NCBI GenBank assembly: GCA_016234845.1
Contig: JACRNP010000012.1
Location: 478 to 64,477 of the forward strand
Length of the DNA: 64,000 nt
Reading direction: 5' to 3'
DNA from: Deltaproteobacteria bacterium
GTDB taxonomy: Bacteria > Desulfobacterota > Deferrimicrobia > Deferrimicrobiales > Deferrimicrobiaceae
Shown one piece after another: positions 1,648 to 16,889 of the stretch. The notes below the pieces were generated by a model. That model had not been told where the DNA came from, did not search any database, and worked only from the letters and a program-made list of their open reading frames with translations. The first letter of the stretch is position 1; each line of letters begins with the position of its first letter. A program made the translations under genes and the position numbers.

Positions 1648-2582
1648 GCGGGCGGTGCCGGAGCCGCAGGGAGTTCCTGAGAGAAGCGGGGTGCGCGGTC
1701 GGGGCGGCGGTTCTGGGCGCCGGGATTCCGATTCCGGGGTTCGCGGCGTCCGGAAAAAGCGTCGACGTCTCGGTCGCGTCGGCCGGAGATCCCGCCGAAT
1801 GCGCGCGAAGGGCCGTCGCGTCGCTGGGCGGGATGAAGTCGTTCGTCTCCCGGGGGGATATCGTCGTCCTGAAGCCCAACATCGGGTGGGACCGCACGCC
1901 CGAGCAGGCGGCCAACACGCACCCGGAGTTCGTCGTGGCGGTCGCGGAGATGTGCCTGGCGGCCGGGGCGAAGTCGGTCCGCGTCTTCGACCGCACGTGC
2001 AACGAACCCAGGCGCTGCTACGCGAGCAGCGGCATCCAGGCCGCCGTGGAGCGGTTCGCGAAGAAGGCGCGCGCGGAGGACGCGCTGCGCGTGTACCACG
2101 CGGAAGACCGGAAATTCGTCCGGACCGCCATCCCGGGAGCGCTGGTCCTCAAGGAATGGGATCTGCACCGGGACGCGCTCGAGGCGGACCGGATCGTGAA
2201 CCTCCCGATCGCAAAGCACCACACGCTGGCTTCCGCCACCCTGGGGATCAAGAACATGATGGGGATCATGGGCGGGAACCGGGGACAGATCCACAACCGG
2301 CTGTCGGAGTGCCTCGCGGACATCCATCGGAGGGTCCCCGTCCACCTGACCGTGATCGACGCGTGGCGCGTGCTGATGCGGAACGGCCCTTCCGGGGGGA
2401 ACCTCGCGGACGTGAAGGCGTTCGGCAAGGCGATCGCCTCCCGGGACGTGGTCGCGGCCGACGTGGTCGCCGCGGAGAGGATCTTCGGCGTCGAAGTGCA
2501 GGATGTTCCGCACGTCCGGAAGGCGCTGGAGGCGGGGATCGGGATCTCTTCCATCGCGCAGATCCGCCGGATCGAGGGTTGA
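1644..2582 (+). CDS. Tat-signal DUF362 family protein (possible Fe-S/redox protein)
   Basis: The ATG at 1644 overlaps the upstream stop (ATGA). The N-terminus MSGRCRSRREFLREAGCAVGAAVLGAG is a twin-arginine signal. The DUF362-like core is IVVLKPNIGWDRTPEQAANTHPEFVVAVAEMCLAAGA...IAKHHTLASATLGIKNMMG. The longer ORF start at 1449 is Arg/Gly-rich read-through of the upstream gene's other frame. Confidence 0.7.
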   Translation: MSGRCRSRREFLREAGCAVGAAVLGAGIPIPGFAASGKSVDVSVASAGDPAECARRAVASLGGMKSFVSRGDIVVLKPNIGWDRTPEQAANTHPEFVVAVAEMCLAAGAKSVRVFDRTCNEPRRCYASSGIQAAVERFAKKARAEDALRVYHAEDRKFVRTAIPGALVLKEWDLHRDALEADRIVNLPIAKHHTLASATLGIKNMMGIMGGNRGQIHNRLSECLADIHRRVPVHLTVIDAWRVLMRNGPSGGNLADVKAFGKAIASRDVVAADVVAAERIFGVEVQDVPHVRKALEAGIGISSIAQIRRIEG

Positions 2583-5500
2583 CCCCGCGGATCCGACGCG
2601 CCGTCTTCTCCGCGCCGGTCCTTCTCTGGCTGGCGGTTTCGGCGTGCGCGCACGCGCCGGCGGGGCCGGCCCCACCGATGCCGGGCGCCGCCGTCCTTCC
2701 GGTCGCGTACATCGCAGCCGATACGGTCTGGAGCGGCGACGTCCACATCGAAGGCGTCGTGCACGTGCGCAAGGGGGCGACGCTCACCGTCGCTCCCGGG
2801 ACGCGCATACACTTCTCCGCCGCGAAGGGGTCCTCTTCGGAAGAGCACGAAGGGTTCGCGGGCGCAGGCATCCGGGTGGACGGGCGGATCGTCGCCGTCG
2901 GAACCGAAGAGTCCCCGATCGTCTTCACCACCGAGGGAAGGCCGGCCGTCCCCGGTTCCTGGGACAAGATCCTCTTCACGTTCAGCGAGGGGAACCGGTT
3001 CGAGCATTGCGTCCTCGAGGGGGCGCGGTACGCCTTCCATTCCCACTTCTCCGGGATAACCGCGCGCCGGTGCGTTTTCCGGGACAACGAGGAGGGAGTG
3101 CGTCTCGGGTTGTCGCGGGTGCGAATCGAGGATTCGGTCTTCACGCGGAACCGGGTCCGCGGGATCAACTTCCGGGAGTCCCGGAACGAGATCGTCGGGA
3201 ACCTGGTGTACGAAAACGGCGACGGGATCTTCCTCCACTCGAAGAGCTCCGGTTCGACGATCCGCGGAAACGCGATCTACTCGAACCGCGGATTCAACCT
3301 GCGCCTCGGCGACCTGCACGCCGACGACGCCGACGTTTCCGGGAACTGGTGGGGGACAGCCTTCGAGGCGGACATCCGGAGCACGATCCACGACGGCGCC
3401 GCGACCCCCGGCACGGGGACCGTCCGGCTCGCGCCGATCCTCCTTCTCCCTCCCGCGACCCGTGGAGCGATCCGGGGGGTGTTCACGAGAAACCTGGTTC
3501 CGGTGGCGGGCGCGGAGGTCCGCGCATACGGTTCGGTCGCACGGGGGTTCTGGGGGGAGCTCCCGATCGCCTCCTCCCGTACCGACGAATCGGGGTACTT
3601 CCGGCTGCCGGTGCCGCCCGGGCGGTACTTCGTCGTCGGGAAGGCGGTCTCCCCGGGAGGGCGCCTGTTCGCTTTCCCGGGCCGGAACCCGATCGCAGTC
3701 GCCCTCGATGAAACGGCGGAGGTCGGGTTGCCGGCCGTCCTGCAGCCGCCGTCGAGCGCCCCTTCGGTGAAGGAGGCGCCCCGCTCCTCGATCGCGGCCA
3801 GGGCGACCATCGATGGGAGACCGGCCGCCGGCGTCTCGGTCCACGCCACCCGCCCCGACCGCCCGGATTTCCGGGGGCCCGGGGAGGCGTCGGCCGTGAC
3901 GAACGCGGAAGGGGTGGCGATCCTTTACCTTCCTCCGGGGAAATATCTCCTCTCCGCGAAGAAACGGACGACCGGGGCGGCGTTCGGGATGGTGGACGAA
4001 GGGGGGCTCTTCGGCGTGTACCCGGACTCCCCGGTCGATCTGTCCGCGGGCCGCGCGGTCGCGGTGGAGATCCCGCTGTTCGAGAAGGTCGGCCTGCTCG
4101 GCGCGTCCTCCGACCGTGAAGAGGGCGGTCTCCGTGATCCCGGTCGGGACGTGTCGAAGGCGGTGGCGGAGGGCGCAACCCGCGCAAGGAGGCCGGCGGC
4201 GGAATTTCCGCCGGGGACGATCGGCGGTTTTCTCTCGGGGAAGATCACCTTGTCGGGACGCGTCGAAGTGACGGAGGATCTCCTCCTCCTCCCGGGCGCG
4301 GAGCTGTCGCTTTCCCCCGGGGCCGAGCTGCGGTTCTCGAAGAGCGAATCGACCAAGGTGGACCCGGAGTTCTACCTCGGGGGGACGGAACTGGTGGTCC
4401 GCGGCACGCTGCGCGCGGAAGGAGCCCGGTTCGTCTTCCCCGACCGGACCGGCGGGGTGGTGGTCGACGGCGGGAGGGCCGAACTTGCGGATGTCGCGAT
4501 CTCCGGCGCCGAGGCGGGGCTCACGATCCTGGGGGGCGGGTCCGCGGCCTTCCACGGAACCGTCGCGGTCGAAAATTGCCGAACCGGCGTTGCGCTCTTT
4601 CCGGCACAGGGCGTCGGGTGGGAGGGGAACGGCACCGTCACGGCCAGGGGAAACGCGGTCGGGGCGGTACGGTTTCCCGGAGCCCCCGCGCTGCCGGCGG
4701 GTTTTCGGGCGGAGGAGAGCGAGGAGGCCGACGTGATCGCGTGGGCGACGCCACCCGGGGACCGGCGTGAAACAGGATCCGCGCCTCCCGCGCCGTCGCG
4801 GGGCGCCCGCAGGATCGTCGACACCTTCCTTGAAACGGATCGCACCCTGGAAGGCGACGTCGTGATCGACGGGATCGTCCGGGTCGCGCCCGGCGCCACC
4901 CTGACGCTTCTCCCGGGGACCCGCCTCTTCTTCACATTCCGGGACACCGACGGCGACGGGATCGGGGAGAACGGGATCTTCCTGCAGGGGAACCTCCGCG
5001 CCCGGGGGACGGCCGATCGGCCGATCGGGTTCCACCCGGAGGCGGGGCGCGGCCCGGGACGCTGGGACTCCATCAATTTCATGGCGAGCGACCGCGGGGA
5101 GAACGTCCTCGAGCACGTCGAGATCGTCGGGGCGTACCGAGGGCTCCACGCCCACTTCAGCCGGCTCGAGGGGAGGTTCGTCCGGATCGCGGAGTGCAAC
5201 CGGGGCGTGCAGTTCCAGGAGTCGGAAGTGTCCTTCATGCACCTTCGCATCGCCTCCTCTTCGAGCGCCGTCCGGTGCCGCGACTCCGAAGTCCGGATCG
5301 ACGGGTTCGAGGCGAGCGACACCGTCTCGGGGGGGAACTTCTTCCGCAGCCGGGTTTCCCTCTCCGGGGTCCGGACCGATCGCTCCGGGTGGTACGGTTT
5401 CCGGTTCCGCGAGAGCCGGGTGGATCTCCGGGACGGCGGTGTGGCCGGATCCCTGGTCGGCGTGTCGATCCAGGAAGGGGAGATTTCCGCGGAAGGGATG

Positions 5501-5788
5501 GAGTTCGTCGGAAACGGGCTGGCCGCCGTGGGTGTGCTGGATGGGGATGTTAAACTGGAGGGATGCGCCCTGAACGACAGCCGCGTCGACGGGATCGGGG
5601 CGACGCGGGGGAAGATATCGGTCCGGGGCGGGGAGATCGCGCGGTACGGCCGGCACGCCGTCAAGCTGGGCGGTCCGGCGGAGGTGGCGTTGCGGGGAAC
5701 GAAGGTGTCGGGGGGAGCGGGCGCATCCCCCGTGATGTATTACGACGGGCGCGCGTCCGCGGGGCTCGGGACGGTTCGCGTTGAGTAG
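2579..5788 (+). CDS. Large lipoprotein with three parallel beta-helix (NosD/CASH-like) modules and a carboxypeptidase-regulatory-like beta-sandwich
   Basis: The TTG at 2579 overlaps the upstream TGA (TTGA). The N-terminus M/LTPRIRRAVFSAPVLLWLAVSAC is a lipoprotein signal with a VSAC lipobox. The motif TVWSGDVHIEGVVHVRKGATLTVAPGTRIHFS recurs at about aa 60, 560 and 750 (DRTLEGDVVIDGIVRVAPGATLTLLPGTRLFFTF) and also in the beta-helix domain of the 1..1647 gene. A CarbopepD_reg-like segment is RGVFTRNLVPVAGAEVRAYGS...GYFRLPVPPGRYFVV. The ORF-track start at 1613 is a spurious N-terminal extension. Confidence 0.7.
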   Translation: MTPRIRRAVFSAPVLLWLAVSACAHAPAGPAPPMPGAAVLPVAYIAADTVWSGDVHIEGVVHVRKGATLTVAPGTRIHFSAAKGSSSEEHEGFAGAGIRVDGRIVAVGTEESPIVFTTEGRPAVPGSWDKILFTFSEGNRFEHCVLEGARYAFHSHFSGITARRCVFRDNEEGVRLGLSRVRIEDSVFTRNRVRGINFRESRNEIVGNLVYENGDGIFLHSKSSGSTIRGNAIYSNRGFNLRLGDLHADDADVSGNWWGTAFEADIRSTIHDGAATPGTGTVRLAPILLLPPATRGAIRGVFTRNLVPVAGAEVRAYGSVARGFWGELPIASSRTDESGYFRLPVPPGRYFVVGKAVSPGGRLFAFPGRNPIAVALDETAEVGLPAVLQPPSSAPSVKEAPRSSIAARATIDGRPAAGVSVHATRPDRPDFRGPGEASAVTNAEGVAILYLPPGKYLLSAKKRTTGAAFGMVDEGGLFGVYPDSPVDLSAGRAVAVEIPLFEKVGLLGASSDREEGGLRDPGRDVSKAVAEGATRARRPAAEFPPGTIGGFLSGKITLSGRVEVTEDLLLLPGAELSLSPGAELRFSKSESTKVDPEFYLGGTELVVRGTLRAEGARFVFPDRTGGVVVDGGRAELADVAISGAEAGLTILGGGSAAFHGTVAVENCRTGVALFPAQGVGWEGNGTVTARGNAVGAVRFPGAPALPAGFRAEESEEADVIAWATPPGDRRETGSAPPAPSRGARRIVDTFLETDRTLEGDVVIDGIVRVAPGATLTLLPGTRLFFTFRDTDGDGIGENGIFLQGNLRARGTADRPIGFHPEAGRGPGRWDSINFMASDRGENVLEHVEIVGAYRGLHAHFSRLEGRFVRIAECNRGVQFQESEVSFMHLRIASSSSAVRCRDSEVRIDGFEASDTVSGGNFFRSRVSLSGVRTDRSGWYGFRFRESRVDLRDGGVAGSLVGVSIQEGEISAEGMEFVGNGLAAVGVLDGDVKLEGCALNDSRVDGIGATRGKISVRGGEIARYGRHAVKLGGPAEVALRGTKVSGGAGASPVMYYDGRASAGLGTVRVE

Positions 5789-6689
5789 AACGACCCGGGT
5801 CGTCTTCCTCCTGCTCCTGGCGGGTACCGCCGCGGTGATCCTCAATGCCGTTTTCCGCCCGCCGAAGGCGCCGCTGCGCGTCGCGTTCCAGGTGTGCAAC
5901 TCGATCGAGGAGAACCGGGAGCGGTTCGAACCGCTGGTCGCGTACCTCGAGACGACGCTGGGACGGAAGGTGATCGCGAGCCACGTCAACACGTTCGACT
6001 TCGTGGAGCGCGCGCAACGCAAGGAGTTCGATGTTCTCCAGGCGAACGGATACATCTACGTCACCGTAAAGGAGAAGGGCGGCGCGACGCTCCTGGCCCG
6101 GGAGGTCAAGCGGGACACGGGGAAGGACACCGGGGGGCTGATCGTGGTCCGCGCCGATTCGCCGGTCCGGGCGCTTGCGGATCTGAAGGGGAGGAAGATG
6201 GCGTTCGGCCCCGTGCTGTCGCCCGGCGGGTACCTGGCCCAGTACCACGCGATGCTGTCGGCGGCGCTGGACCCGGAGAAGGTCCTCGGGAGCTACACGT
6301 TCCTGCCCGGGGCGTGGCAGCACGAGAAGGTGGTGTACTCGATCCTGTACGGGGCGGTGGACGCGGGGGCCGTCAAGGTGGGCGACATCGAACGGATGGA
6401 GGCGGAAGGGAAAGTGCGGAAGGCGGACTTCCGGGTGATCGCGGCGTCGGAACCGGTTCCAAACTGCACCTTCTTCGCACTACCCCATGTGGACGCGGAG
6501 ACGGGAACGCGGGTTCGGGAGGCGCTCCTTCGGCTGTCCGAAAACGATTTCGCTGCAGTAAACGGGGAGCGTCTCAACGTATTGAAGAGGGACGGGACGA
6601 GAGGGTACGTTCCGGCGGCCGACGGGGAGTTCGACGTGTTGCGGAAGATGGCGCGGGCCGCGAACCTCCCGCCATACGAAAAATATTAG
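5781..6689 (+). CDS. PhnD/SsuA-like periplasmic substrate-binding protein (phosphonate/phosphite ABC-type binding-protein family), orphan
   Basis: The start overlaps the upstream stop. It has an N-terminal TM/signal (VVFLLLLAGTAAVIL). The family motif is LRVAFQVCNSIEENRERFEPLVAYLETTLGRKVIASHVNTFDFVERAQRKEFDVLQANGYIYV. No ABC permease or ATPase lies adjacent. Confidence 0.65.
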   Translation: MSRTTRVVFLLLLAGTAAVILNAVFRPPKAPLRVAFQVCNSIEENRERFEPLVAYLETTLGRKVIASHVNTFDFVERAQRKEFDVLQANGYIYVTVKEKGGATLLAREVKRDTGKDTGGLIVVRADSPVRALADLKGRKMAFGPVLSPGGYLAQYHAMLSAALDPEKVLGSYTFLPGAWQHEKVVYSILYGAVDAGAVKVGDIERMEAEGKVRKADFRVIAASEPVPNCTFFALPHVDAETGTRVREALLRLSENDFAAVNGERLNVLKRDGTRGYVPAADGEFDVLRKMARAANLPPYEKY

Positions 6690-6704
6690 AGGGAACGGAG
6701 CCGG

Positions 6705-7109
6705 ATGGAGACGATCTCGGGCAAGCCGCTGACCGTGCTGGCCGTACTCCTCGCCGGGGTGTCGATCGCCGGCGTCTTCGGGGTGGCGATTTCCGGAGGG
6801 ATCGAGGTTCCGGGGCGGACGCCCCGCGGGGACGTCGCCGCGGAAGGGAACGGCCCGGAGAGGGCGGCGGCCGAAGTGGCGCTCGCCCGCTCGGCGGAAC
6901 AGTCCGGGAACGTGGCGGACGCGCTGGCGCACTACCGGGCGGCGGCGCTCCTCGATCCCCGCGTCGTGGATCCGCGGTCGCCGCTCTTCCTCGGCCCCGG
7001 ATTCGAGGCGCGCCTGAAAAAGTGGGTCGGGGGGCAGAAAACGGGCGGCGCCCAGGCCCGCTCCGACGCGGCGTACCTTTTCCGCCGGATGTACGGGGGG
7101 TGCGGGTGA
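6705..7109 (+). CDS. Hypothetical membrane-anchored protein (134 aa)
   Basis: It follows a 15-nt gap after the previous gene. It has an N-terminal TM (LTVLAVLLAGVSIAGVFGVAI) and an Ala/Arg-rich soluble part. Its stop overlaps the next start (GTGA). Confidence 0.45.
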   Translation: METISGKPLTVLAVLLAGVSIAGVFGVAISGGIEVPGRTPRGDVAAEGNGPERAAAEVALARSAEQSGNVADALAHYRAAALLDPRVVDPRSPLFLGPGFEARLKKWVGGQKTGGAQARSDAAYLFRRMYGGCG

Positions 7110-8176
7110 ACCTTCGGCGGATCCTCTACCCGGAGTCTGCCGGGGCGCTCGCCCTGTACGGAGGGGTGTTCGGGGCGGTCGCCGTCCTGCTCGTCAGGCT
7201 GGGAAACCCGGCGGGAACGGGCCTTTGCGCCTCCTGTTTCCTCGTGAACGTCGCCGGCGCGCTCCACCTCCACGCGAAGGAGTCCCAGAGTTACCTGCGC
7301 CCCGAGATCCTCGGGATCGTCCTCGGCGCATTCTTCGCGGCGTTCGCCGGCGGGGAGTTCCGCGCGAGGGGCGGCGGATCGGCGATCCCCCGGTTCCTCG
7401 GGGGGGCGTTCCTCATCTTCGGGTGCGAAGTGTTCCTCGGTTGCCCGATCAAGGCGCTGCTCCGGACCGCCGGGGGCGGCGCGACGGGCGCCGTCGGTCT
7501 TGCCGGACTCGTGGCGGGGGTGCTTTTCGCCGCGCTCTACGTGCGCGACGGATTCGCTCTCCCGGAAGCGCGGCAATTGCCGGAAGGCGCGGGGCTCGCG
7601 CTGCCGACGGCGGCGTTCCTCCTGCTGCTGGCGGGAGCGACGGGCGCGGAAGCGCTCGCCGCCCCGGGATTCCCCGGGGGGGCGCGCCACGCTCCGTTCG
7701 CGGTTTCCGCGGCGGCAGGCCTGTTTTTCGGCGCGGCGGGGCAACGGTCCCGGTTCTGCGTGACGGGAAGCGTCCGCACGGCGTTCCTCGCCCGCGACTT
7801 CCGCGAAGCCGCCGGGACGCTGTCGTTTCTCCTGGCCGCCCTGCTCCTCGCCGCGTTGTCCGGCTCCTTCACCCCGACGCTTTCGCTGGAGCCGGGTGCG
7901 CACACCGACCTGGTCTGGGCGTTCCTGTCCCTTGCGATGGTGGGATTCGGCGCGATCCTGATCGGCGGGTGCCCGTTCCGGCAGATCGTGCTGGCATCCT
8001 CTGGGGAGATGGACGCCGCGGCGGCGGTCGTCGGCATGCTCCTGGCCGCCGGGCTCTCCGTCCGCCTCGGGATCGGCTCCTCTCCGGCGGGCGTGACCGG
8101 CGCGGGGAAGGCGGCGGTCCTCCTCGGTTTCGCCTTCTTCCTCCTCCTCGCCGCATGGAAGCGGAGGAGGGAGTAA
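7106..8176 (+). CDS. YeeE/YedE family transporter (sulfur/selenium-compound transport family)
   Basis: The GTG at 7106 overlaps the upstream stop. The protein is polytopic and has the internally duplicated Cys-containing loops typical of this family (CASCFLVNVAG, FGCEVFLGCPIKAL, IGGCPFRQIV). The 760-aa ORF in the track (5894..8176) is a false 5' extension running through the previous two genes in another frame. Confidence 0.7.
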   Translation: MNLRRILYPESAGALALYGGVFGAVAVLLVRLGNPAGTGLCASCFLVNVAGALHLHAKESQSYLRPEILGIVLGAFFAAFAGGEFRARGGGSAIPRFLGGAFLIFGCEVFLGCPIKALLRTAGGGATGAVGLAGLVAGVLFAALYVRDGFALPEARQLPEGAGLALPTAAFLLLLAGATGAEALAAPGFPGGARHAPFAVSAAAGLFFGAAGQRSRFCVTGSVRTAFLARDFREAAGTLSFLLAALLLAALSGSFTPTLSLEPGAHTDLVWAFLSLAMVGFGAILIGGCPFRQIVLASSGEMDAAAAVVGMLLAAGLSVRLGIGSSPAGVTGAGKAAVLLGFAFFLLLAAWKRRRE

Positions 8177-8179
8177 GGG

Positions 8180-9175
8180 ATGGCCACGGCGGTCGTTCTC
8201 GCGAGGATGTTCCTGGAAGAGGTGTGGCACGTGCTGCCGTACTTCTTGATCGGGGTGTTCCTGGGAGCGGTCATCCGTACCTTCCGCCTCCACGTCCGCA
8301 TGCGGGACAAGCTGGGCCGATTCGGTGGGCTCGCGGTCCCGGCCGCCATCCTGATCGGCACGATCAGCCCGTTGTGCTCCTGCGGGTCGATCCCCCTGTT
8401 CGTCTCGCTGCTCTCCTCGGGAGTCCCGCTGGCGCCGGCGCTGACGCTCCTGCTGGTGTCGCCGCTGATGAGCCCGAGCGGGTACGCGATCACCGCGTGG
8501 GAGCTCGGCCCCGCGTGGGCGAACCTGAAGCTGTTCTCGGCGCTCTTCATGGGATGCTTCGCGGGCGGCATCACGCTCCTGCTCGAGCGGCGCGGCTTCT
8601 TCGGGAACCCCGGGGTGCTGCGGACGGAGTACGGGAAGGTCGACATCCACGCGCCCGATTGCCCGGGGGAGCTGTCGTGCCGCTGCGGCGACCAGTGGAG
8701 CAACCGGCTGGCCCGGAAAGGACACGGCACGGCGGTCGTCTTCCTCGCCAAGGCGTGGGAGCTCACCGTGACGACCGGGAAGTTCACGCTGATCGGGGTG
8801 GCCGCCGCGGTCCTGGCGGAGCGGTTCATACCGCGGGAGTGGATCGCCGGGCACCTCGGGACCGGGTCGCCGGCCAACGTGGTGACGGTCACGCTCCTCG
8901 CCGTTCCGCTGCACGTGAACGAGATCACCGCCGCCGCCATCCTCTACAGCCTCCTGGGGCTGGGGCTGGCGAAGGGGCCGGCGCTCGCCTTCCTGATCGG
9001 AGGCCCGGCGACGTCGATCCCGGCGATGTCGGTGCTTTTGACCATGTGCCGCCGCCGGGTGGTGGGGGTGTTCCTCGGGCTGTGCCTCGCGGGCACGCTG
9101 ATCCTGTCGCTGTCGTTCCAGGCGGCGATCGACCGGTTCCCCGCGTTTTCCACGCTCTTCGACTACGTGAAGTAG
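8180..9175 (+). CDS. DUF318/ArsP-like permease with CSCG motif
   Basis: The ATG sits 4 nt after the upstream stop. Membrane motifs are GTISPLCSCGSIPLFVSLL (compare the ArsP TPFCSCS motif) and a second half-repeat ending LIGGPATSIPAMSVLL. It also has a Cys-rich loop PDCPGELSCRCGD. Confidence 0.7.
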   Translation: MATAVVLARMFLEEVWHVLPYFLIGVFLGAVIRTFRLHVRMRDKLGRFGGLAVPAAILIGTISPLCSCGSIPLFVSLLSSGVPLAPALTLLLVSPLMSPSGYAITAWELGPAWANLKLFSALFMGCFAGGITLLLERRGFFGNPGVLRTEYGKVDIHAPDCPGELSCRCGDQWSNRLARKGHGTAVVFLAKAWELTVTTGKFTLIGVAAAVLAERFIPREWIAGHLGTGSPANVVTVTLLAVPLHVNEITAAAILYSLLGLGLAKGPALAFLIGGPATSIPAMSVLLTMCRRRVVGVFLGLCLAGTLILSLSFQAAIDRFPAFSTLFDYVK

Positions 9176-9186
9176 GGAGGTTTCCG

Positions 9187-9540
9187 ATGATCCTGCCCAA
9201 GCGCAACCCCGAGGTCGTCTGGCGTCTGGAGAAGGGGATCCACGCCATGGCGTGGGACAAGGCGCGCAAGGAGGAGGATTTCGAGGACGTCGGGGTGTTG
9301 ACGCTGATGGTCCAGGGCGGGATCCACCAGCTGAACCTGGTGGGGGCCGAGATCTGGACCCGGATCAACGGGATCAACACCGTCTCGAAGATCTCCGCGG
9401 AAGTGTCGGCGCTGTTCGGATGGGAACCGGGGGAGACGGAAGAGGCGGTGCTCGAGTTCCTGAAAGGGATCGAGGAGAAGGGGTGGGTCACGCTTGCGCC
9501 CGCTCCCGGCCGCGCGCCCGCCCCGGGGGGAAGGGCGTAG
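9187..9540 (+). CDS. PqqD-like peptide-binding protein (RiPP recognition element, RRE)
   Basis: The sequence MILPKRNPEVVWRLEKGIHAMAWD...LNLVGAEIWTRINGINTVSKISAEVSALFGWEPGETEEAVLEFLKGIEEKGWV follows the PqqD/PF05402 pattern (a 'LN.tg..iW.l.dG..tv.ei...l' core with an 'ef...L...gli' tail). It lies directly upstream of a radical SAM/SPASM gene, separated by 3 nt. Confidence 0.7.
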   Translation: MILPKRNPEVVWRLEKGIHAMAWDKARKEEDFEDVGVLTLMVQGGIHQLNLVGAEIWTRINGINTVSKISAEVSALFGWEPGETEEAVLEFLKGIEEKGWVTLAPAPGRAPAPGGRA

Positions 9541-9543
9541 CCG

Positions 9544-10548
9544 ATGCTTCCGTACCTCCCCTCGCCCGTCACCGTCAACTGGGGGATCACGGCGCGCTGC
9601 AACTTCGTCTGCAGCCACTGCTTCTCCCGCCTCGACCCGTCCCCGGAGCTGTCGCCCCCGGAGGCGAGGCGCGTGGTGGACATCCTCGCGGAGCGGTCGG
9701 TGATGTTCCTCAACTACGGGACCGGCGAGCCGCTGCTCCGCCCGGACCTGTTCACGCTTACGGAGCACGCGGTGGGGAGGGGCTTGAAGGTCACGATGAA
9801 CAGCAACGGATCGCTGATCGACGCGGCCGCGGCCCGGAGGATCCGCGAGGCGGGGTTCCACTCCGTGGGGATCAGCATCGATTCGGCGTCGGCGTCCGTC
9901 CACGACTCCTTCCGGAGGATGCCCGGCAGCTTCGGCAAGGCCGTGAAGGCGGCGCGCCTGCTGCGGGAAGAGGGGATCGCCCTCACGATCTCGTCGGTCG
10001 TCTGCAAGGTGAACCACGACGATTTTCCGGCGCTGGTCGCGCTGGCGAAGGAGCTCGGGGCGGGGACCATCGACCTGCACAACTTCAAATGCTCCGGCAT
10101 GGGGGGGCTGAACAAGGAGGCGTTGGACCTGTCGCCCGCGGAGTGGAAGGCGTTCTACCAACGCGCGGTGCCCCTCCGCGACGCGGAACACGGCATCGCC
10201 ATCGCCTTCGACGACCCGATCCTCTCGTTGCTGGGCGGGGAAGACAGGGGCCGGCTCGTCGCCGGATCGGTGTGCGGAAAGTTGTCCCTCTACATCAAGC
10301 CGAACGGGGAGATCACCCCGTGCGGTTTCATCCCGGTGACGATCGGCCATATCCTGCGGGACGATTTCGGCGAGGTGTGGCACGGGTCGGAGCTGCTCGC
10401 CCGGCTGCGAACCAAGGCGGCGGCCGGGAAATGCTCGGGATGCGCGAAATTCTCCTCGTGCCTCGGCGGCTGCACCGCCCGCGCGTTCGCCGTGTACGGC
10501 GCCTGGGACGCTCCCGATCCCCATTGCTGGTCCGACGGGAAATCCTGA
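9544..10548 (+). CDS. Radical SAM/SPASM-domain peptide-modifying enzyme (PqqE/anSME/MftC-like)
   Basis: The N-terminal radical SAM cluster is WGITARCNFVCSHCF (CxxxCxxC). The C-terminal SPASM cysteines are SVCGKL...PCGF...CSGCAKFSSCLGGCTARA. Confidence 0.85.
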   Translation: MLPYLPSPVTVNWGITARCNFVCSHCFSRLDPSPELSPPEARRVVDILAERSVMFLNYGTGEPLLRPDLFTLTEHAVGRGLKVTMNSNGSLIDAAAARRIREAGFHSVGISIDSASASVHDSFRRMPGSFGKAVKAARLLREEGIALTISSVVCKVNHDDFPALVALAKELGAGTIDLHNFKCSGMGGLNKEALDLSPAEWKAFYQRAVPLRDAEHGIAIAFDDPILSLLGGEDRGRLVAGSVCGKLSLYIKPNGEITPCGFIPVTIGHILRDDFGEVWHGSELLARLRTKAAAGKCSGCAKFSSCLGGCTARAFAVYGAWDAPDPHCWSDGKS

Positions 10549-10615
10549 CGCAAGACGCTCCGCCGCACGCCTCCCGCGGTAAAATGTCCGGACTCGTCGC
10601 ATTCGGGAGAGGAAC

Positions 10616-11521
10616 ATGGAGTTTTCGCTGCCCATACGCATCCGGTGGGACGTCGATTTCCGGGGGCGGTCCGGCCGGGTGAAGCGGATCGCACGCCGCG
10701 TCGCGGAAGCGTCCCCGCTCTTCGTGGAGCTTCACATTTCCGGCAATCGCGGATGGAAGGAGTTTCCCGCGATCGTCGCGGAACTCCAGAAGGCGGGGTG
10801 CCGGGTTTCCGCGCACATCGCCCTTTTTCCGGAAGCCGGGGCCGCTCCCCGCAGGGGGTACCCGGTGGATTTCGTCTGGGACATCGGACGAACCGCGGGA
10901 TTCGTCCCGCGACTTCCGGACGGGGCCACCGCGGTCTCCTTCGTTCCCGACGACGAATCGGCGGAAGAGCTGCCGGAAGTGCTCACGGAGTTCGCGGAGT
11001 GCGGGATCTCCGACCTGCACCTGGTGAACGTGAACGCGGTCCGTTCGATCGCGGAACGCGGGCACGTGCCGGTTCCGGCGATCGGCAAGCTCCGGGAGGC
11101 CGTGGCGGAGACCGCCTCCAGGGGGACGGCGCTCGAAGGAAAACGGCTGGTGGTGCACGACTACTTTCTCTGGAAGGCGCTCTCGGACATGTACCCGGGG
11201 ACGACGGGAGAGCGCGTCGAGTTCACCGGGTGCCAGGCCGGCACCGCGCTGGCCTTCGTGGACTGGGAAGGGAACGTGTACCCGTGCGACTCCCTCCCGA
11301 TCCGGCTCGGCAACATCGAGGAGTCCGCCTTCATCGACGTGTGGGATTCTCCGGTGCGGTCGCGGGTGGTCGATTCCATCCGGGGAACGCCGTGGGCGTG
11401 CGACGGGTGCGGCGAATACCGCGGGTGCTTCGGCGGTTGCCGCGGCATGGGGTACCTGGCGGCGGGTTCCCTCGATGCGCCGGACCCGGCGTGTCCTTCG
11501 GTCCCCCGCACCGATCGTTGA
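10616..11521 (+). CDS. Pseudo-radical-SAM/SPASM protein (SPASM-type C-terminal Cys clusters but no CxxxCxxC SAM cluster)
   Basis: It has a good RBS (GGGAGAGG) before the ATG. The C-terminus FTGCQAGTALAFVDWEGNVYPCDSL...WACDGCGEYRGCFGGCRGMGY resembles a SPASM/twitch domain. The first 200 aa contain a single Cys and no CxxxCxxC. Length and the C-terminal layout parallel the adjacent true rSAM. Confidence 0.65.
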   Translation: MEFSLPIRIRWDVDFRGRSGRVKRIARRVAEASPLFVELHISGNRGWKEFPAIVAELQKAGCRVSAHIALFPEAGAAPRRGYPVDFVWDIGRTAGFVPRLPDGATAVSFVPDDESAEELPEVLTEFAECGISDLHLVNVNAVRSIAERGHVPVPAIGKLREAVAETASRGTALEGKRLVVHDYFLWKALSDMYPGTTGERVEFTGCQAGTALAFVDWEGNVYPCDSLPIRLGNIEESAFIDVWDSPVRSRVVDSIRGTPWACDGCGEYRGCFGGCRGMGYLAAGSLDAPDPACPSVPRTDR

Positions 11522-11554
11522 ATACGCCTCGGGTAATATGATGTAATCCACCGG

Positions 11555-12127
11555 ATGGCCTACGAAGACGACTCGAGGCTTGCGCGGAAGGCCCAGCGGG
11601 GGGACCGCGAGGCGTTCGAGGTCATCCTGACGCGATACGAACGACCGATCTTCTCCTTCATCTACCACTTCTTCCACAACCCTTCCCTCTGCGAAGACCT
11701 GACCCAGGAGACGTTCCTTCGCGCGTGGAGGTTCATCAAATCGTTCCGGCCGAAGGAAAAACTTTCGACCTGGCTCTTCTCCATCGCGAAGAACCTCTGC
11801 ATCGACGAGCTGCGGCGGATGCAGAAGGGGACCACCGTCGACATCGACGCCGTGGATCCCGAAGCGCTCGTCTCGGAGGGCGACCGTGCGGGAGACCCCC
11901 TGGACGCGTCGATCCGGCTGCAGGAGGGGGAGATGCTTCGGAAAGCGATCGCACGGATGCCGGATAAATACCGGGCGTGCATCATCCTGTTCTATTTCAA
12001 CGAGCTCAGCTACGAGGAAATCGCGCAAGTCATGGATATTTCCCTCAGCAACACGAAGATTCTCCTGTTCCGGGGGAAAAAGATGCTCGCCGGCCTGTAC
12101 AGGGAGGACCGGGGCGGAAAAGTGTAA
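11555..12127 (+). CDS. ECF-family RNA polymerase sigma-70 factor
   Basis: Region 2 is RGDREAFEVILTRYERPIFSFIYHFF...DLTQETFLRAWRFIKSF. Region 4 is RMPDKYRACIILFYFNELSYEEIAQVMDISLSNTKILLFRGKKML. Confidence 0.85.
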   Translation: MAYEDDSRLARKAQRGDREAFEVILTRYERPIFSFIYHFFHNPSLCEDLTQETFLRAWRFIKSFRPKEKLSTWLFSIAKNLCIDELRRMQKGTTVDIDAVDPEALVSEGDRAGDPLDASIRLQEGEMLRKAIARMPDKYRACIILFYFNELSYEEIAQVMDISLSNTKILLFRGKKMLAGLYREDRGGKV

Positions 12128-12181
12128 CAATCCGGCCCGGTGGATGTAGTAAGGGATGCACGGTACAAGGGGGAGGGTGTT

Positions 12182-12985
12182 TTGACCGGTTGCCGGAAAT
12201 ACGAAGGGATTCTCGCGAAATACCTGGACGGGGACGCGCTGCTCCAGGACCGGGAGGAGCTCGAACAGCATCTTTCCGTCTGCCCCGACTGCGAGCGGCT
12301 GTACCTTGAGCTGTCCGACGTGGACCGGGCATTGCGGGAGCATCCCGGGAAGCAGGTCGATCTCCCGCCGTACCTTCACGCACGGATCGTGGCGAACCTT
12401 CCGGAGAAGCAGGAATTTCCCCTTTGGGCATCCTGGGGCCGCCGGGCCGCGGCATTCGGCGTGGCCGTCGCCGGGGTCATCGCCCTGGCGATCGTTCTCC
12501 GGCAGGGGGATGGCACGCGGGTCGACCGTGTCGCCTCCGCCCCTTCCCCCGCGCCCGTGGTTCAACCCTCCGCACCGTCCGGTCCGCGGGAGATCCCCGT
12601 CCTTTCTTCCCCCGGTGAGCCTCGGGAACTTCCCGCCCGGAAGCCGGAACCGGATGGCGGCGGCAAGCGGGGAACCGAGGTGGCCTCCGCCCCGAAAGTG
12701 CAGGTGATCAAGGAAGTGAAGATCTTCTTCTACTACCCGCCGGCGCGGACCGTCGCCGTGACGGGCGACTTCAACAATTGGGACGCGAACGGCGTGCCGC
12801 TTGCGGTCGCCGGAAAGCCCGGCCTGTGGGAAACCGAGCTGCGGCTCCCCCCCGGCGCCTACTCGTACAACTTCATCGTTGACGGGGAGCTTCTCGTCCC
12901 CGACCCGAACTCGCCGAACCAGATGCCGGACGGGTACGGCGGGACGAACTCGATCCTGCTGGTGCAGGGGGAGACGGCGATATGA
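12182..12985 (+). CDS. Anti-sigma factor: N-terminal zf-HC2, one TM, C-terminal CBM48/E-set (glycogen-binding-like) beta-sandwich
   Basis: The TTG at 12182 is preceded by AGGGGGAGGG; the ORF track begins at the GTG at 12140. The zinc finger is HLSVCPDCERLY. The TM is AAAFGVAVAGVIALAIVL. The C-terminus KIFFYYPPARTVAVTGDFNNWDANGVPLAVAGKPGLWETELRLPPGAYSYNFIVDGELLVPDPNS matches the AMPK-beta/isoamylase-N (CBM48) pattern. It is directly downstream of the ECF sigma gene. Confidence 0.7.
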   Translation: MTGCRKYEGILAKYLDGDALLQDREELEQHLSVCPDCERLYLELSDVDRALREHPGKQVDLPPYLHARIVANLPEKQEFPLWASWGRRAAAFGVAVAGVIALAIVLRQGDGTRVDRVASAPSPAPVVQPSAPSGPREIPVLSSPGEPRELPARKPEPDGGGKRGTEVASAPKVQVIKEVKIFFYYPPARTVAVTGDFNNWDANGVPLAVAGKPGLWETELRLPPGAYSYNFIVDGELLVPDPNSPNQMPDGYGGTNSILLVQGETAI

Positions 12986-13584
12986 GGTATCCGCTGTCGG
13001 GTTTCTTCGCGGCCCTGGCCGTTATCTGGCTGGTCGCCGTTCCCCCGGCCGGCGCACAGCTCACCGGGATCGACGACCTGTGCCGGCTCCACGGGATCGG
13101 GGACGACGAAAGCATCGTCAGGATCCGCACCGCCTATCTGCAGGCGATGGAGACGGGTATCTCGGAAGAGATCCTCTTCCCGTTTGTCGAGGATGTCCTT
13201 CGGCACAAGCTCAACTGCGGTCAGATGGTGCGGGTGCTCGACGTCACGGCGCGGTTGAGAAAGGCGGACCTGCCGTACTTCGTCGTATTCAGCAAGGTGA
13301 GGGAGGGAGTCGCCAAGGAGGCGCCTCCGGCCCGGGTGGTGGAGGCCGCCGAGGCGAAATTTAAGACTTTATCGGAATCCCGCGATGTTTTAAAATCTCT
13401 CGGGTCGATGGGATACGGCATCCGCGACCCGCAGAACGCCGCGGTGGTGGTTTCCTCCTACATCGAAAGGGGATACGCCCCCGCGGAAATCGTGACGCAG
13501 ATCAGGAACAAGGGGATCCAGGGGGGGGGATTTGCCGCGTTGTCCGGCGTGCTGGAGAAACCGGTGAAACGGAAAGCGCACTGA
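12982..13584 (+). CDS. Secreted hypothetical protein (200 aa)
   Basis: The ATG overlaps the upstream stop (ATGA). The signal peptide is MRYPLSGFFAALAVIWLVAVPPAGAQ. I recognised no family. Confidence 0.55.
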   Translation: MRYPLSGFFAALAVIWLVAVPPAGAQLTGIDDLCRLHGIGDDESIVRIRTAYLQAMETGISEEILFPFVEDVLRHKLNCGQMVRVLDVTARLRKADLPYFVVFSKVREGVAKEAPPARVVEAAEAKFKTLSESRDVLKSLGSMGYGIRDPQNAAVVVSSYIERGYAPAEIVTQIRNKGIQGGGFAALSGVLEKPVKRKAH

Positions 13585-13586
13585 CC

Positions 13587-16500
13587 TTGCCGGCGCGCAA
13601 AAAGAGGCCCGCCCTCGGCGCGGCGTCGCGGCTGCCGCTCGCGGCGGTCCTTTTCGCCGCCGGAATCCTCGTCGCCGTCTCCTGGTCCCCGGCGAGCGCC
13701 GGAGTGTCCGGCACGCTGCACGACTTCTCGAAGGACGGCCCCTACGGGCTTTCCACCCCGATCGCCGCGTCGGGGGCCTGTTCCGGGTGCCACATCCCGC
13801 ACGGCGCCGATCCGAACGCTCCCATCTGGGCGCGAAGCCTGGCGGATTACATATCGGGGCTTACGGTGAACGGAGACACGGCGGGCAAGCCGAACTACGT
13901 TCTCCCTCCCACCCGCGCCTGCTACGACTGCCACGACGACCAGAGCTCCTTCCAGAACAACAAGCCGACGGGCTGGGGATTTTCGGCATCCCACACCCCG
14001 CCCGACATCGCCTTCGGGACCCAGGGACCGAGGGCGGGAAAAACCGGGTATTACGAGAACAACCCGCCGAGCTCCGACACCTACGGTGCGGATCCGTCGC
14101 TGAGGCCGCTTGCCACATGGCCGACCGACAACACGGCTTTGAACAAGACCGGCGGCCACTACTTCAAATGGGGCGATCCGACGGGGAGCACCAACGACAC
14201 GTTCGACATCGGCGACAAGCTTCCGTGCAGCGATTGCCACGACCCGCACTCGGGCTCGGGCTTCCAGGCGTTCATCCGCTCGAACCTCCCAAACAGCGGC
14301 GCGAACCCCGGACTCGGATCTTCCTACTCCTCGGTGACGGCGAGCAGCTTCATGTCGAACAACAGCGGGATCACCCGCAGCAACTCCGAGAGCCGGAAGA
14401 TCTGCGTTGCGTGCCACGGCTACTCGAACAACGGCACCCCGGTCAAATATTACGCGATCAATCCAGCCGCGTACGCCAACAACACCGACAACGTTCCGAG
14501 GCCGCCCCCGTCGGTTTCGGACCACGACAGCTCGGCGACCTCCGTCGCATGCGTATCGTGTCACGACCACAACACGGTCGGCGCCTCCTGCTCGACGTGC
14601 CACGGATACCCCCCGCCCGGGTATCCCGCCGGGAACACCCCTACGGCGTACTCTTCCGGGGCGGACAGCCACGCCCGGCACAGAAACGGCTACGCGTACG
14701 CCTGCGGCGTCTGCCACACCGGAAACGCCCACCAGGACAACAACGTGCAGGTGTCGTTCGATACGACCATCCTCGGAGGGCGGCTCGCCCTGGGGTCTTC
14801 GACGAATCCGTCCCCCCCGAAACGGGTGCCGGCGGGCGGGACCCAATGCTCGAACATCTACTGCCACAGCTCCGGCCGCGACGGGATCACCCCGTCGTCG
14901 AATCCGACCCATTACTCCACGGTCCAGTGGGGCGTGCAGTCCGGGCAGGTGATGTGCGACGGTTGCCACGGAAAATTCACGGTCGGCTCCGGCGGTGATT
15001 TTCTCGCGGACAACACGAGCATGCGGTACGGAGCGCCGAACTACGTCAATTCGGGAGCGCCGGGCTCCGCGACCTCGAACTCCCACAGGGCCCACGTAGG
15101 GACGTACGAATGTTCCGTCTGTCACGGGAGCGCTTTCGGCGATTACAACCCGGTATCCAGGACACGGACGATCTCGAGCGTCGCCAACCACGTGAACGGC
15201 ACCCGCAACATATCGTTCACCGGGCCGGCGTTGGGAGGATCGGTAAACTACGATTCCGCCACGAAGACGTGCACCGTTCCCTCCTGCCACGGCGGAGGCG
15301 CGCCGCAGTGGGGAGGAAGCCTCACGGGCTGCTCCGACTGCCACCTGTCGTCGAGCCCGGACTCCGACGTGTACCTGAACCACTCGGCGAGCAACAACCT
15401 GTACGACGCAAACCAGGCGGGGAACATCAACATCACCGAATGGCAATATTCCGGACACGGGAAGACGACGGGCACGTACGACGTATCAGGCCGCCCCGCC
15501 GCCAACTTCTCGGGGGGAGACCCCTGCTACTTCTGCCACAACCCGTACGCGCTGCACGACAACACCTCCAACCCGTTCCGGTTGAAGGACCAGACCGGGG
15601 CGGCCGCGTACCTTTCCGACAAGGGGTGGAACGCGACGTGCCTGGTGTGCCACTACCATGCCACGGCACCGGTCGGCTACAACCCGTTCGGCGGGGCCGC
15701 CGTGAAGGCGACGGCGGCGTTCACCGACAACAACCATTACGGCGCGGATCATGTCGCCGCGGGGACGAACGGCGGAAAGCTCTGCTGGGACTGCCACGAT
15801 CCGCACGGCGACCGGCCGTCGTCCGGCGTGAACAACATCTACATGATCCAGGGGGGTGGCAGCCGCACCGCTCCTGCCGTCGGACAACTGCTCAGGCAGA
15901 GCGACGGCACCTACGGGTTCCGCGGCACAGCGGGGACATTGACGACCAACGCTCCAGCGTTCATCGCGGCCGCCACGGGGACCGACTACGTGGACAATAC
16001 CGGCGTCAACAGGAACGGGATCTGCCAGGTCTGTCACACGACCGCCTCCCACTGGACCGCGACGAGCGGCGACGGGCACAACGCCGGAGCCCGTTGCACC
16101 CAGTGCCACACGCACGATTCGGGATTCGCCCCGTCCGACTGCAGGGGGTGCCACGGGGGGAACGACGGTTTGACGGGGGCGGCGGGAGCGCCATTCGTCA
16201 CGAGGTACTGGGGGGATTCCGGGACGACGGGGATCAAGAGCGGGCACGGAAGGGCGACCAGCCCCGCGATCGGGTGCGGGGATTGCCACGACGCGACTCT
16301 TCCGGGAGGGAGCACTCACAAGACGAACAACACATCGGGGACGGCGCCTTTCAACATCAACACCGAACATTGGCAGGGCAAGACCCGCACGGCCGATACG
16401 GATCCCAACACGAACACGTCCCACCTGATAGCGGCCTATATCGGTACCGGCACCGACGCGCAGAAGCAGATCGCGTTCGACGACGCATGTTACAGTCGCT

Positions 16501-16889
16501 GCCACCAGGGGAAGGGCATTTCGAATCACCGGCATACGAAACAGTCCCCGCTTTACATGGAGTTCGGAAGGAAGGGGACGACCTCGAACCCGAAGCAGTA
16601 CGTCTGGAACAACAACGGTTCCTGGGACTACAAGAACGAATTCTACAAATCGTGGAGCCCCTGGACCATCCGCGACCTGACGACGGATGCGACCTACCCC
16701 GGATCGATGCCTTCCACGCACTATGGAACCTGCGTCTCCTGCCACGACCCCCATGGAACGGGGATCACGGACAACACCGTCACCAACAGCGGACCGAGCT
16801 CGGGGACGTGGACGAACCACATGGTCCGGGGGAAATGGAAAACGGACACGGCGGCCTTCTGCAACGGCGCCTGCCACAGGAAACCGTAA
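13587..16889 (+). CDS. Giant multihaem c-type cytochrome (1100 aa, about 22 haem-binding motifs, mixed CXXCH and CX3-4CH)
   Basis: The TTG start lies 3 nt after the previous stop. The signal peptide is PARKKRPALGAASRLPLAAVLFAAGILVAVSWSPASA. There are many CXXCH motifs (CSGCH, CYDCH, CSDCH, CVACH, CVSCH, CSTCH, CGVCH, CDGCH, CSVCH, CYFCH, CLVCH, CWDCH, CQVCH, CTQCH, CRGCH, CGDCH ...). Non-canonical motifs include CSNIYCH, CTVPSCH, CYSRCH and CNGACH. Confidence 0.9.
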   Translation: MPARKKRPALGAASRLPLAAVLFAAGILVAVSWSPASAGVSGTLHDFSKDGPYGLSTPIAASGACSGCHIPHGADPNAPIWARSLADYISGLTVNGDTAGKPNYVLPPTRACYDCHDDQSSFQNNKPTGWGFSASHTPPDIAFGTQGPRAGKTGYYENNPPSSDTYGADPSLRPLATWPTDNTALNKTGGHYFKWGDPTGSTNDTFDIGDKLPCSDCHDPHSGSGFQAFIRSNLPNSGANPGLGSSYSSVTASSFMSNNSGITRSNSESRKICVACHGYSNNGTPVKYYAINPAAYANNTDNVPRPPPSVSDHDSSATSVACVSCHDHNTVGASCSTCHGYPPPGYPAGNTPTAYSSGADSHARHRNGYAYACGVCHTGNAHQDNNVQVSFDTTILGGRLALGSSTNPSPPKRVPAGGTQCSNIYCHSSGRDGITPSSNPTHYSTVQWGVQSGQVMCDGCHGKFTVGSGGDFLADNTSMRYGAPNYVNSGAPGSATSNSHRAHVGTYECSVCHGSAFGDYNPVSRTRTISSVANHVNGTRNISFTGPALGGSVNYDSATKTCTVPSCHGGGAPQWGGSLTGCSDCHLSSSPDSDVYLNHSASNNLYDANQAGNINITEWQYSGHGKTTGTYDVSGRPAANFSGGDPCYFCHNPYALHDNTSNPFRLKDQTGAAAYLSDKGWNATCLVCHYHATAPVGYNPFGGAAVKATAAFTDNNHYGADHVAAGTNGGKLCWDCHDPHGDRPSSGVNNIYMIQGGGSRTAPAVGQLLRQSDGTYGFRGTAGTLTTNAPAFIAAATGTDYVDNTGVNRNGICQVCHTTASHWTATSGDGHNAGARCTQCHTHDSGFAPSDCRGCHGGNDGLTGAAGAPFVTRYWGDSGTTGIKSGHGRATSPAIGCGDCHDATLPGGSTHKTNNTSGTAPFNINTEHWQGKTRTADTDPNTNTSHLIAAYIGTGTDAQKQIAFDDACYSRCHQGKGISNHRHTKQSPLYMEFGRKGTTSNPKQYVWNNNGSWDYKNEFYKSWSPWTIRDLTTDATYPGSMPSTHYGTCVSCHDPHGTGITDNTVTNSGPSSGTWTNHMVRGKWKTDTAAFCNGACHRKP

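Follow-up and report, generated by a model that had tools for sequence, protein, structure and literature searches.

The 64-kb stretch of contig JACRNP010000012.1 analyzed here (the window) encodes, side by side, a PqqD-family recognition protein, a radical S-adenosylmethionine (SAM) enzyme with a SPASM domain, and a SPASM-only protein in which the SAM-cluster motif is missing. Judged by family models this trio is a divergent copy of GeoRSP (TIGR04302/3/4), a system that has been curated and named, yet is functionally uncharacterised. Taken as a whole, the observations are probably best explained by a divergent GeoRSP copy that matures a short peptide ending in cysteine, the precursor of which is not encoded in cis here. 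GeoRSP as a named family was already known; what is added here is a candidate for the precursor, a transporter module that is conserved around the trio, and a lineage without a precursor gene in cis. A literature search gave nothing relevant on GeoRSP, on its TIGR0430x accessions, or on PqqD and SPASM together with Geobacter. An earlier note on this DNA gave the cluster no family name; the trio is no orphan but belongs to this named family.

The window has a base composition of about 65-70% G+C. The three genes are adjacent on the forward strand in the order PqqD, radical SAM, SPASM-only, forming a compact operon (Table 1) with 3 nt between positions 9540 and 9544 and 67 nt between 10548 and 10616. 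The motif CNFVCSHC of the radical SAM enzyme is encoded at nt 9598-9621. All the features of radical SAM maturation that depends on a recognition element (RRE) are present, namely the recognition element itself, the CxxxCxxC SAM cluster and the SPASM cysteines. The layout supports the interpretation that the trio is machinery for the maturation of a peptide by a radical SAM enzyme that depends on a recognition element, one of the partners being catalytically dead. The earlier note had described the same three open reading frames (ORFs), with the same coordinates and 3-nt gap, and had read the combination of an RRE, an active SPASM enzyme and a partner without SAM cluster in the same way. Its PqqD-like assignment agrees with a PF05402 match over the cut-off, and its radical SAM/SPASM assignment with the PF04055 and PF13186 matches and the CNFVCSHC motif.

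For comparison 98 loci were gathered in total and their ORFs were classed by BLASTP. Metagenomes were scanned with an alignment of the radical SAM enzyme, the 110-sequence alignment of the SPASM-only protein being too diverse. Four locus architectures are found: type A, comprising the window and its Deferrimicrobiaceae-type relatives with SPASM-only identities down to 35-44%; type B, or Desulfuromonas-type; type C, the canonical GeoRSP loci; and the trio of a candidate phyla radiation (CPR) genome.

The radical SAM enzyme scores 412.6 bits against TIGR04303 in NCBIfam, over the cut-off of 400, and canonical loci pass all three GeoRSP cut-offs (PqqD 165 bits in locus L008, radical SAM enzyme 618, SPASM-only protein 341-371). 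PqqE is the closest solved structure to the window enzyme by sequence (69.5 bits). The PqqD motifs RNP[DE]VVWR.E and HQLNLVG.EIW are common to the window, canonical and CPR copies, and the window enzyme is about 50-80% identical to the enzymes of loci that carry the peptide gene described below. All residues that are invariant across locus types are kept in the radical SAM enzyme of the window lineage. Its next-best families are AhbD (186 bits), NirJ2 (181 bits) and MftC (179 bits), and with ResB-like genes and giant multihaem cytochromes nearby these scores might suggest that the enzyme modifies a tetrapyrrole or haem for the neighbouring cytochromes, like AhbD or NirJ, and not a peptide. This is highly improbable, however, as the three scores are far under the respective cut-offs of 500, 500 and 265, and the enzyme is found together with a PqqD peptide chaperone and a conserved precursor peptide. 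Moreover, no cytochrome-domain genes lie within 10 kb in the loci looked up, the Desulfuromonas-type L010 and L093/L094 and the CPR locus L012. Other family cut-offs are failed as well (PqqE 110.8 versus 381 bits; NirJ 160-181 versus 500-515).

The motif CxxxCxxC is found nowhere in the SPASM-only protein when its sequence is read directly; the loss of the SAM cluster that the earlier note had described is thus confirmed, no intact motif having been overlooked. Seven SPASM cysteines are retained (C206, C224, C262, C265, C271, C275, and C293). The first six show no variation in an alignment with 109 relatives, and C293, P6, W11, H181, and D182 show almost none. An AlphaFold2 model of the protein (pLDDT, the model confidence, 94.2) can be superposed along its entire length on the radical SAM/SPASM maturases SuiB, PqqE, anSME, CteB, TigE, and SkfB, the TM-score (structural similarity) being around 0.6 for the first four. 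The model indicates that this is a true pseudo-radical-SAM protein, which has kept the radical-SAM fold and lost the SAM-cluster motif. The label, used before on the strength of the SPASM cysteines, is accurate because the protein superposes full-length on these maturases despite having no CxxxCxxC. In BLASTP it resembles the adjacent enzyme within the SPASM domain only (31% over 91 aa). It belongs to a large SPASM-only family, with 176 representatives at 50% identity (E <= 1e-10), whose members are about 300 aa long, have an N-terminal 'PxRxxWDL' strand in common and are without the SAM-cluster motif. CxxxCxxC is missing from the N-terminal region in all 111 full-length representatives, and among 149 inspected representatives one 663-aa fusion protein (P0224) carries it.

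An identical SPASM-only protein is known from a metagenome-assembled genome (MAG) assigned to the Deltaproteobacteria. The label Candidatus Deferrimicrobiaceae is attached to its relatives, and those at 67% identity include proteins that NCBI or JGI call 'GeoRSP system SPASM domain protein'. Two proteins, P0014 and P0327, that are 63-69% identical to the SPASM-only and ResB-like proteins of the window are labelled Candidatus Methanoperedens in NCBI, which could reflect a binning error or gene transfer. A Nitrospirota MAG (L011, 10001-10900) encodes a lone SPASM-only homologue with neither PqqD nor radical SAM enzyme; it adjoins folate-metabolism genes (MTHFR, FolD-like), and an FmdE/zinc-ribbon gene is found 6 kb off.

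Relatives of the trio carry a tiny unannotated gene for a peptide of 18-20 aa, MKKYxKPxVVGSSNVHPC-stop, which was found in 40 loci representing 35 distinct DNA sequences. Among its carriers are relatives with a radical SAM enzyme 50-55% identical to that of the window. In type B and CPR loci this conserved ORF of 18-19 codons lies in a spacer of 140-370 nt that separates the radical SAM gene from the SPASM-only gene, and it encodes MKKY[MIS]KP[RQ][VI]VGSSNVHPC-stop in type B and MKIKYIQPKIVGSS[SN]IHPC in CPR. It is found in every Desulfuromonas-type locus where the spacer is covered, as well as in the transporter-free CPR genome. Five type C loci (L008, L009, L070, L074, and L091) carry MKK..YVRPRIVGSAVVHPC or a close variant, the gene being situated just upstream of the NosD-like gene in four of them and about 1.8 kb upstream in L091. 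Of these, the ones scored, L008 and L009 (which share the protein P0162), L070, and L074, exceed the TIGR04304 cut-off.

The 18-codon ORF bears a clear coding signature, by which it is a real gene in these relatives. It is preceded by AAGGAGG-type Shine-Dalgarno sites 5-9 nt before the start codon. Codon entropy is 1.34 at the third position and 0.50 and 0.36 at the first and second, all 15 third positions vary, and pairwise codon differences comprise 3599 synonymous against 1860 non-synonymous changes. The tyrosine, the proline and the final His-Pro-Cys are invariant. The Shine-Dalgarno site, the third-position variation, the synonymous excess and these invariant residues are the reason for regarding it as a gene. 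The VHPC peptide is the probable precursor, and hence the substrate, of the GeoRSP machinery. It matches no model in NCBIfam or Pfam, and its motif was not found in the literature. A search with concatenated peptides in 5.8 billion protein clusters yielded one over-extended 47-aa prediction, in a type B locus, that contains the peptide. The earlier note had held that a dedicated precursor in homologous loci would make this an ordinary system; the 18-20-aa gene gives the relatives just such an architecture, but the peptide is unannotated and missing from the window's own lineage. A further locus type (L057, L058, and L068), where the SPASM-only protein begins MEFDLPIRIHW, has a GA-rich spacer of 190-310 nt without a VHPC peptide and without any evident ORF or coding signal.

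Several observations weigh against the reading of the trio as a GeoRSP copy with this peptide as its substrate. With a stop-anchored profile, where true peptides score 57-72, nothing in the window exceeds 11, and without the anchor the maximum is 28. The profile has no match in any type A locus (12 or more), L098 included, and the peptide was not found in the 10 kb further upstream of L095-L097 either. Several canonical-type loci have no detectable peptide within 10 kb, and the trio without transporters is known from a single lineage, that of the CPR genome. Regarding the family assignment, the top NCBIfam match of the PqqD protein is TIGR04302 at 49.7 bits, under the cut-off of 100, and that of the SPASM-only protein is TIGR04304 at 102.4 bits, under the cut-off of 300 and covering residues 105-293 only. 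Finally, the chemistry and the link to selenium, sulfur or metals that are proposed below derive solely from family names and adjacency.

That no precursor ORF is visible in the window, as first noted, agrees with the sizes of the gaps, with the profile scan and with a search for conserved C-termini. No intergenic gap in the operon from 5781 to 16889 exceeds 67 nt, and there is therefore no room in it for an unannotated gene. Scans for a precursor in this lineage by regular expression, by profile and for a TGA (selenocysteine) variant were all negative, as was the conserved-C-terminus search, whose hits in 12 type A loci were all ends of known genes or frame shadows of them. The Deferrimicrobiaceae-type lineage keeps the machinery without a precursor gene in cis. 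A precursor encoded in trans is favoured over loss of function in the window lineage, because the type A PqqD motifs and the invariant residues of the enzyme are kept as they are in peptide-bearing systems. Were the trio instead a decaying remnant that had lost both precursor and function, the missing cis peptide would be accounted for, and among the relatives L003 has indeed lost PqqD and L007 the radical SAM enzyme. We consider such decay very unlikely, as the enzyme retains every residue invariant across locus types and the three genes are intact and syntenic across loci with SPASM-only identities from 35% to 96%. The spacer at 10549-10615 carries a TAAAAT/TACAAT-like (CCGGGTACAAT-like) motif common to type A spacers, and toxin-antitoxin-like (HicB-like) insertions have enlarged this spacer in some relatives (spacers compared: L013, L016, L020, and L021).

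Partners of the trio were counted in the 26 loci that cover 5 kb or more on each side of the radical SAM enzyme. The SPASM-only gene is found in all 26, PqqD in 25, YedE and the PhnD-like gene in 24 each, and the small-protein and NosD-like genes in 22 each; the ArsP_1 permease is found in 14, which belong to the window lineage and the canonical GeoRSP loci. YedE, the PhnD-like protein, the small Cys-ended membrane protein and the NosD-like protein form a conserved module around the trio, in distant lineages as well. The earlier note had listed the YeeE/YedE transporter and the CSCG permease simply as neighbours; both are conserved partners of the trio. The type A order is ResB-like, DUF362, NosD-like, PhnD-like, small protein, YedE, ArsP_1, PqqD, radical SAM, SPASM-only, extracytoplasmic function (ECF) sigma factor, anti-sigma factor, 200-aa protein, and multihaem cytochromes. 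In type B it is NosD-like, PhnD-like, small protein, YedE, PqqD, radical SAM, SPASM-only, and an SclA-like cysteine desulfurase/selenocysteine lyase, the last scoring 472 bits against TIGR01977 (cut-off 377) and 347 against SclA. Type C runs NosD-like, DUF4198-like, OpuAC-like, ResB-like, ArsP_1, cupin, PqqD, radical SAM, SPASM-only, an optional FmdE, PhnD-like, small protein, and YedE, and the CPR genome, Candidatus Portnoybacteria, has the trio alone without the transporter module. All-against-all clustering of the flanking ORFs was swamped by high-GC shadow ORFs and gave no new partner; a consensus promoter scan found nothing, and tblastn against plasmids found only enzymes about 33% identical that are not of the GeoRSP type.

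Within type A, the cluster of L095-L097 extends at least 10 kb further upstream than the 5' start of the window, with repeated NosD-like and CarboxypepD_reg/DUF4198-like genes and genes for NosR-like Fer4_5, Peptidase_U32, AAA ATPase, and OpuAC-like proteins. In L003 a non-coding spacer of 445 nt (8837-9280) replaces PqqD. In L007 (9880-11060) PqqD is followed directly by the SPASM-only gene, the sigma and anti-sigma genes are missing and the 200-aa gene is reduced to a 3' remnant.

The small membrane protein encoded at 6705-7109 ends in Y[LF]xxR[LM]xG[GS]C[EGS]-stop, a C-terminus conserved in 49 of 49 homologues, and its gene is always placed between the PhnD-like and YedE genes. It could be this protein that is the substrate, its invariant C-terminal cysteine being modified by the radical SAM enzyme. 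This would explain how the window lineage, which has the small protein, does without the short peptide, and the gene is found beside the trio in the 22 loci counted above. Still, we hold it to be unlikely. The gene travels with the PhnD-like and YedE genes and not with the trio, even where the block is inverted or moved (L075 and L078), and it is missing in the CPR locus and in L003, which both retain the radical SAM enzyme. The protein has an N-terminal membrane helix and a tail unlike that of the VHPC peptide. Of the substrates suggested in the earlier note it stays as a minority candidate, while the product of 12982-13584 and the cytochromes are confined to this lineage and have no comparative support.

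A cross-linking of the QhpD kind had also been suggested, the target being a secreted protein encoded alongside, for instance at 12982-13584, or part of a cytochrome. The sigma, anti-sigma, 200-aa and cytochrome genes do follow the trio throughout the lineage, down to SPASM-only identities of 35-44%, and the sigma/anti-sigma/200-aa block is found downstream of it in L001, L003, L017, L018, L025, and L098. These genes are nevertheless lineage-specific: the block is missing in Desulfuromonas-type, canonical and CPR loci, and the cytochromes are likewise missing in other GeoRSP types. In addition, the 200-aa protein carries a signal peptide. The best 25 NCBIfam matches include no QhpD-type family, so the analogy is not backed by any family score, and there is little probability in favour of this alternative. 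The 200-aa protein, which has two conserved cysteines and is kept after the anti-sigma gene throughout the lineage, matched no Pfam or NCBIfam family.

The reading of the trio as GeoRSP machinery can be set against known systems. The window has the same three genes in the same order as canonical GeoRSP, an enzyme over the TIGR04303 equivalog cut-off, and the same accessories (YedE, PhnD-like, small GGC protein, NosD-like, ArsP_1, and ResB-like). It differs in the PqqD and SPASM-only scores given above and in the absence of a cis VHPC gene, and it adds the ECF sigma/anti-sigma pair, the 200-aa protein and the multihaem cytochromes. With mycofactocin (MftA/MftB/MftC) and pyrroloquinoline quinone (PQQ; PqqA/PqqD/PqqE) GeoRSP shares a PqqD-type chaperone, a SPASM radical SAM enzyme and a very short precursor with conserved residues at the C-terminus. 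However, the GeoRSP precursor ends in His-Pro-Cys, and theirs in Val-Tyr or Glu-x3-Tyr; there is an additional partner without SAM cluster, there are no downstream Mft or Pqq genes, and the window enzyme is under both cut-offs (265 and 381). An active maturase beside a paralogue-like protein without SAM cluster is also the arrangement of the GG-Bacteroidales system and of TIGR04347 (pseudo-SAM/SPASM); the SPASM-only protein of the window is of another family, scoring only 22.8 bits against TIGR04347. As in selenium trafficking of the YedE/YedF and SclA types, the window YedE passes TIGR04112 and type B adds a TIGR01977/SclA-like desulfurase. In contrast to these, neither YedF nor SelD was seen in the loci, and the selenium role of TIGR04112 is only predicted, the prediction being one from comparative genomics that is attached to the family name (PMC9312934).

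In the proposed mechanism the PqqD protein would bind the VHPC-type peptide, and the radical SAM enzyme would modify it at or near the C-terminal cysteine, possibly by forming a thioether link or by an oxidative decarboxylation as in MftC, AhbD, and NirJ. These three and BlsE, a near relative of solved structure, catalyse oxidative decarboxylation or are related to enzymes that do, and a free cysteine at the C-terminus would suit such a reaction; thioether formation is the other common SPASM chemistry. The SPASM-only protein may play a non-catalytic part, either by supplying Fe-S clusters or by holding the substrate. The product might then serve chalcogen or metal handling for periplasmic redox proteins, a tie suggested by YedE, the SclA-like desulfurase, the NosD-like proteins, and ArsP_1. 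In the window lineage the substrate would be encoded elsewhere in the genome, or be changed.

A wider combination of these elements is possible but doubtful, namely that the GeoRSP product joins PQQ and mycofactocin as a third type of cofactor or carrier derived from a peptide, by way of selenium or sulfur delivery, cytochrome wiring and a trans precursor. If so, synthesis would begin with the unannotated precursor of 18 aa and its terminal His-Pro-Cys; sulfur or selenium from the YedE module would be passed on either by the partner without SAM cluster or by the neighbouring desulfurase, and the product would be required for maturing periplasmic or extracellular redox proteins. The Deferrimicrobiaceae system, with its precursor in trans, would be wired via the ECF sigma factor to the giant multihaem cytochromes. 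GeoRSP occurs in metal-reducing Desulfobacterota-type bacteria and in at least one CPR genome, and it is now tractable through a candidate precursor missed by gene callers, a linked putative selenium/sulfur transporter module and a lineage free of a cis precursor. Should the product be a new peptide-derived cofactor or chalcogen carrier, this would bear on how the extracellular electron-transfer apparatus is built.

Table 1. Features of the window in and around the GeoRSP-type trio (positions in nt; all scores in bits).
Feature	Position	Strand	Details
ResB-like/beta-helix protein	67-1647	+	Upstream member of cluster
DUF362 protein	~1653-2576	+	Upstream member of cluster
NosD-like right-handed beta-helix protein	2579..5788	+	PF05048, PF13229; tblastn with L004 genes
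PhnD-like periplasmic binding protein	5781..6689	+	PF12974, 168
Small protein, one N-terminal membrane helix, weak TPR-like region	6705..7109	+	C-terminus YLFRRMYGGCG
YedE-family putative selenium/sulfur transporter	7106..8176	+	TIGR04112, 304.5 (over cut-off 200)
ArsP_1 permease, CSCG motif	8180..9175	+	PF03773, 129
PqqD-family recognition protein (RRE), GeoRSP type	9187..9540	+	117 aa; PF05402, 40.3 (cut-off 23.4)
GeoRSP_rSAM, intact radical SAM/SPASM enzyme	9544..10548	+	334 aa; PF04055, 82; PF13186, 35
Spacer at position of relatives' peptide gene	10549..10615	+	67 nt, no ORF
SPASM-only pseudo-radical-SAM protein	10616..11521	+	301 aa; sole Pfam match PF13186, 37.5
ECF sigma, anti-sigma (zf-HC2 + CBM48), secreted 200-aa protein	11555..13584	+	Lineage-specific neighbours
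First of four giant multihaem cytochromes	13587..16889	+	18 CxxCH motifs; same position filled in L003, L098

Upstream of the trio, the order ResB-like to DUF362 is repeated in L004 and L095-L098. The NosD-like region of the window is a single frame of about 1070 codons, and L004 and L096-L098 have instead two genes there, of about 610 and 560 aa; the single frame could be due to a fusion or to a lost stop codon. The nearest NCBIfam model of the permease is the SO_0444 Cu/Zn efflux family, at 85.6 bits and under the cut-off of 300.

Downstream, the four giant multihaem cytochromes (13587-35829) comprise 1100, 2442, 1425, and 1775 aa and together contain 100 CxxCH and 19 CxxxCH/CxxxxCH motifs, a count that replaces the '130 or more' haem motifs initially given. 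Three of the four match a Geobacter CxxxxCH...CxxCH domain. On the reverse strand the window further encodes another radical SAM enzyme, B12-binding and unrelated to that of the trio (44493-46031), and a nitroreductase with a methyltransferase-like region (48231-49589).

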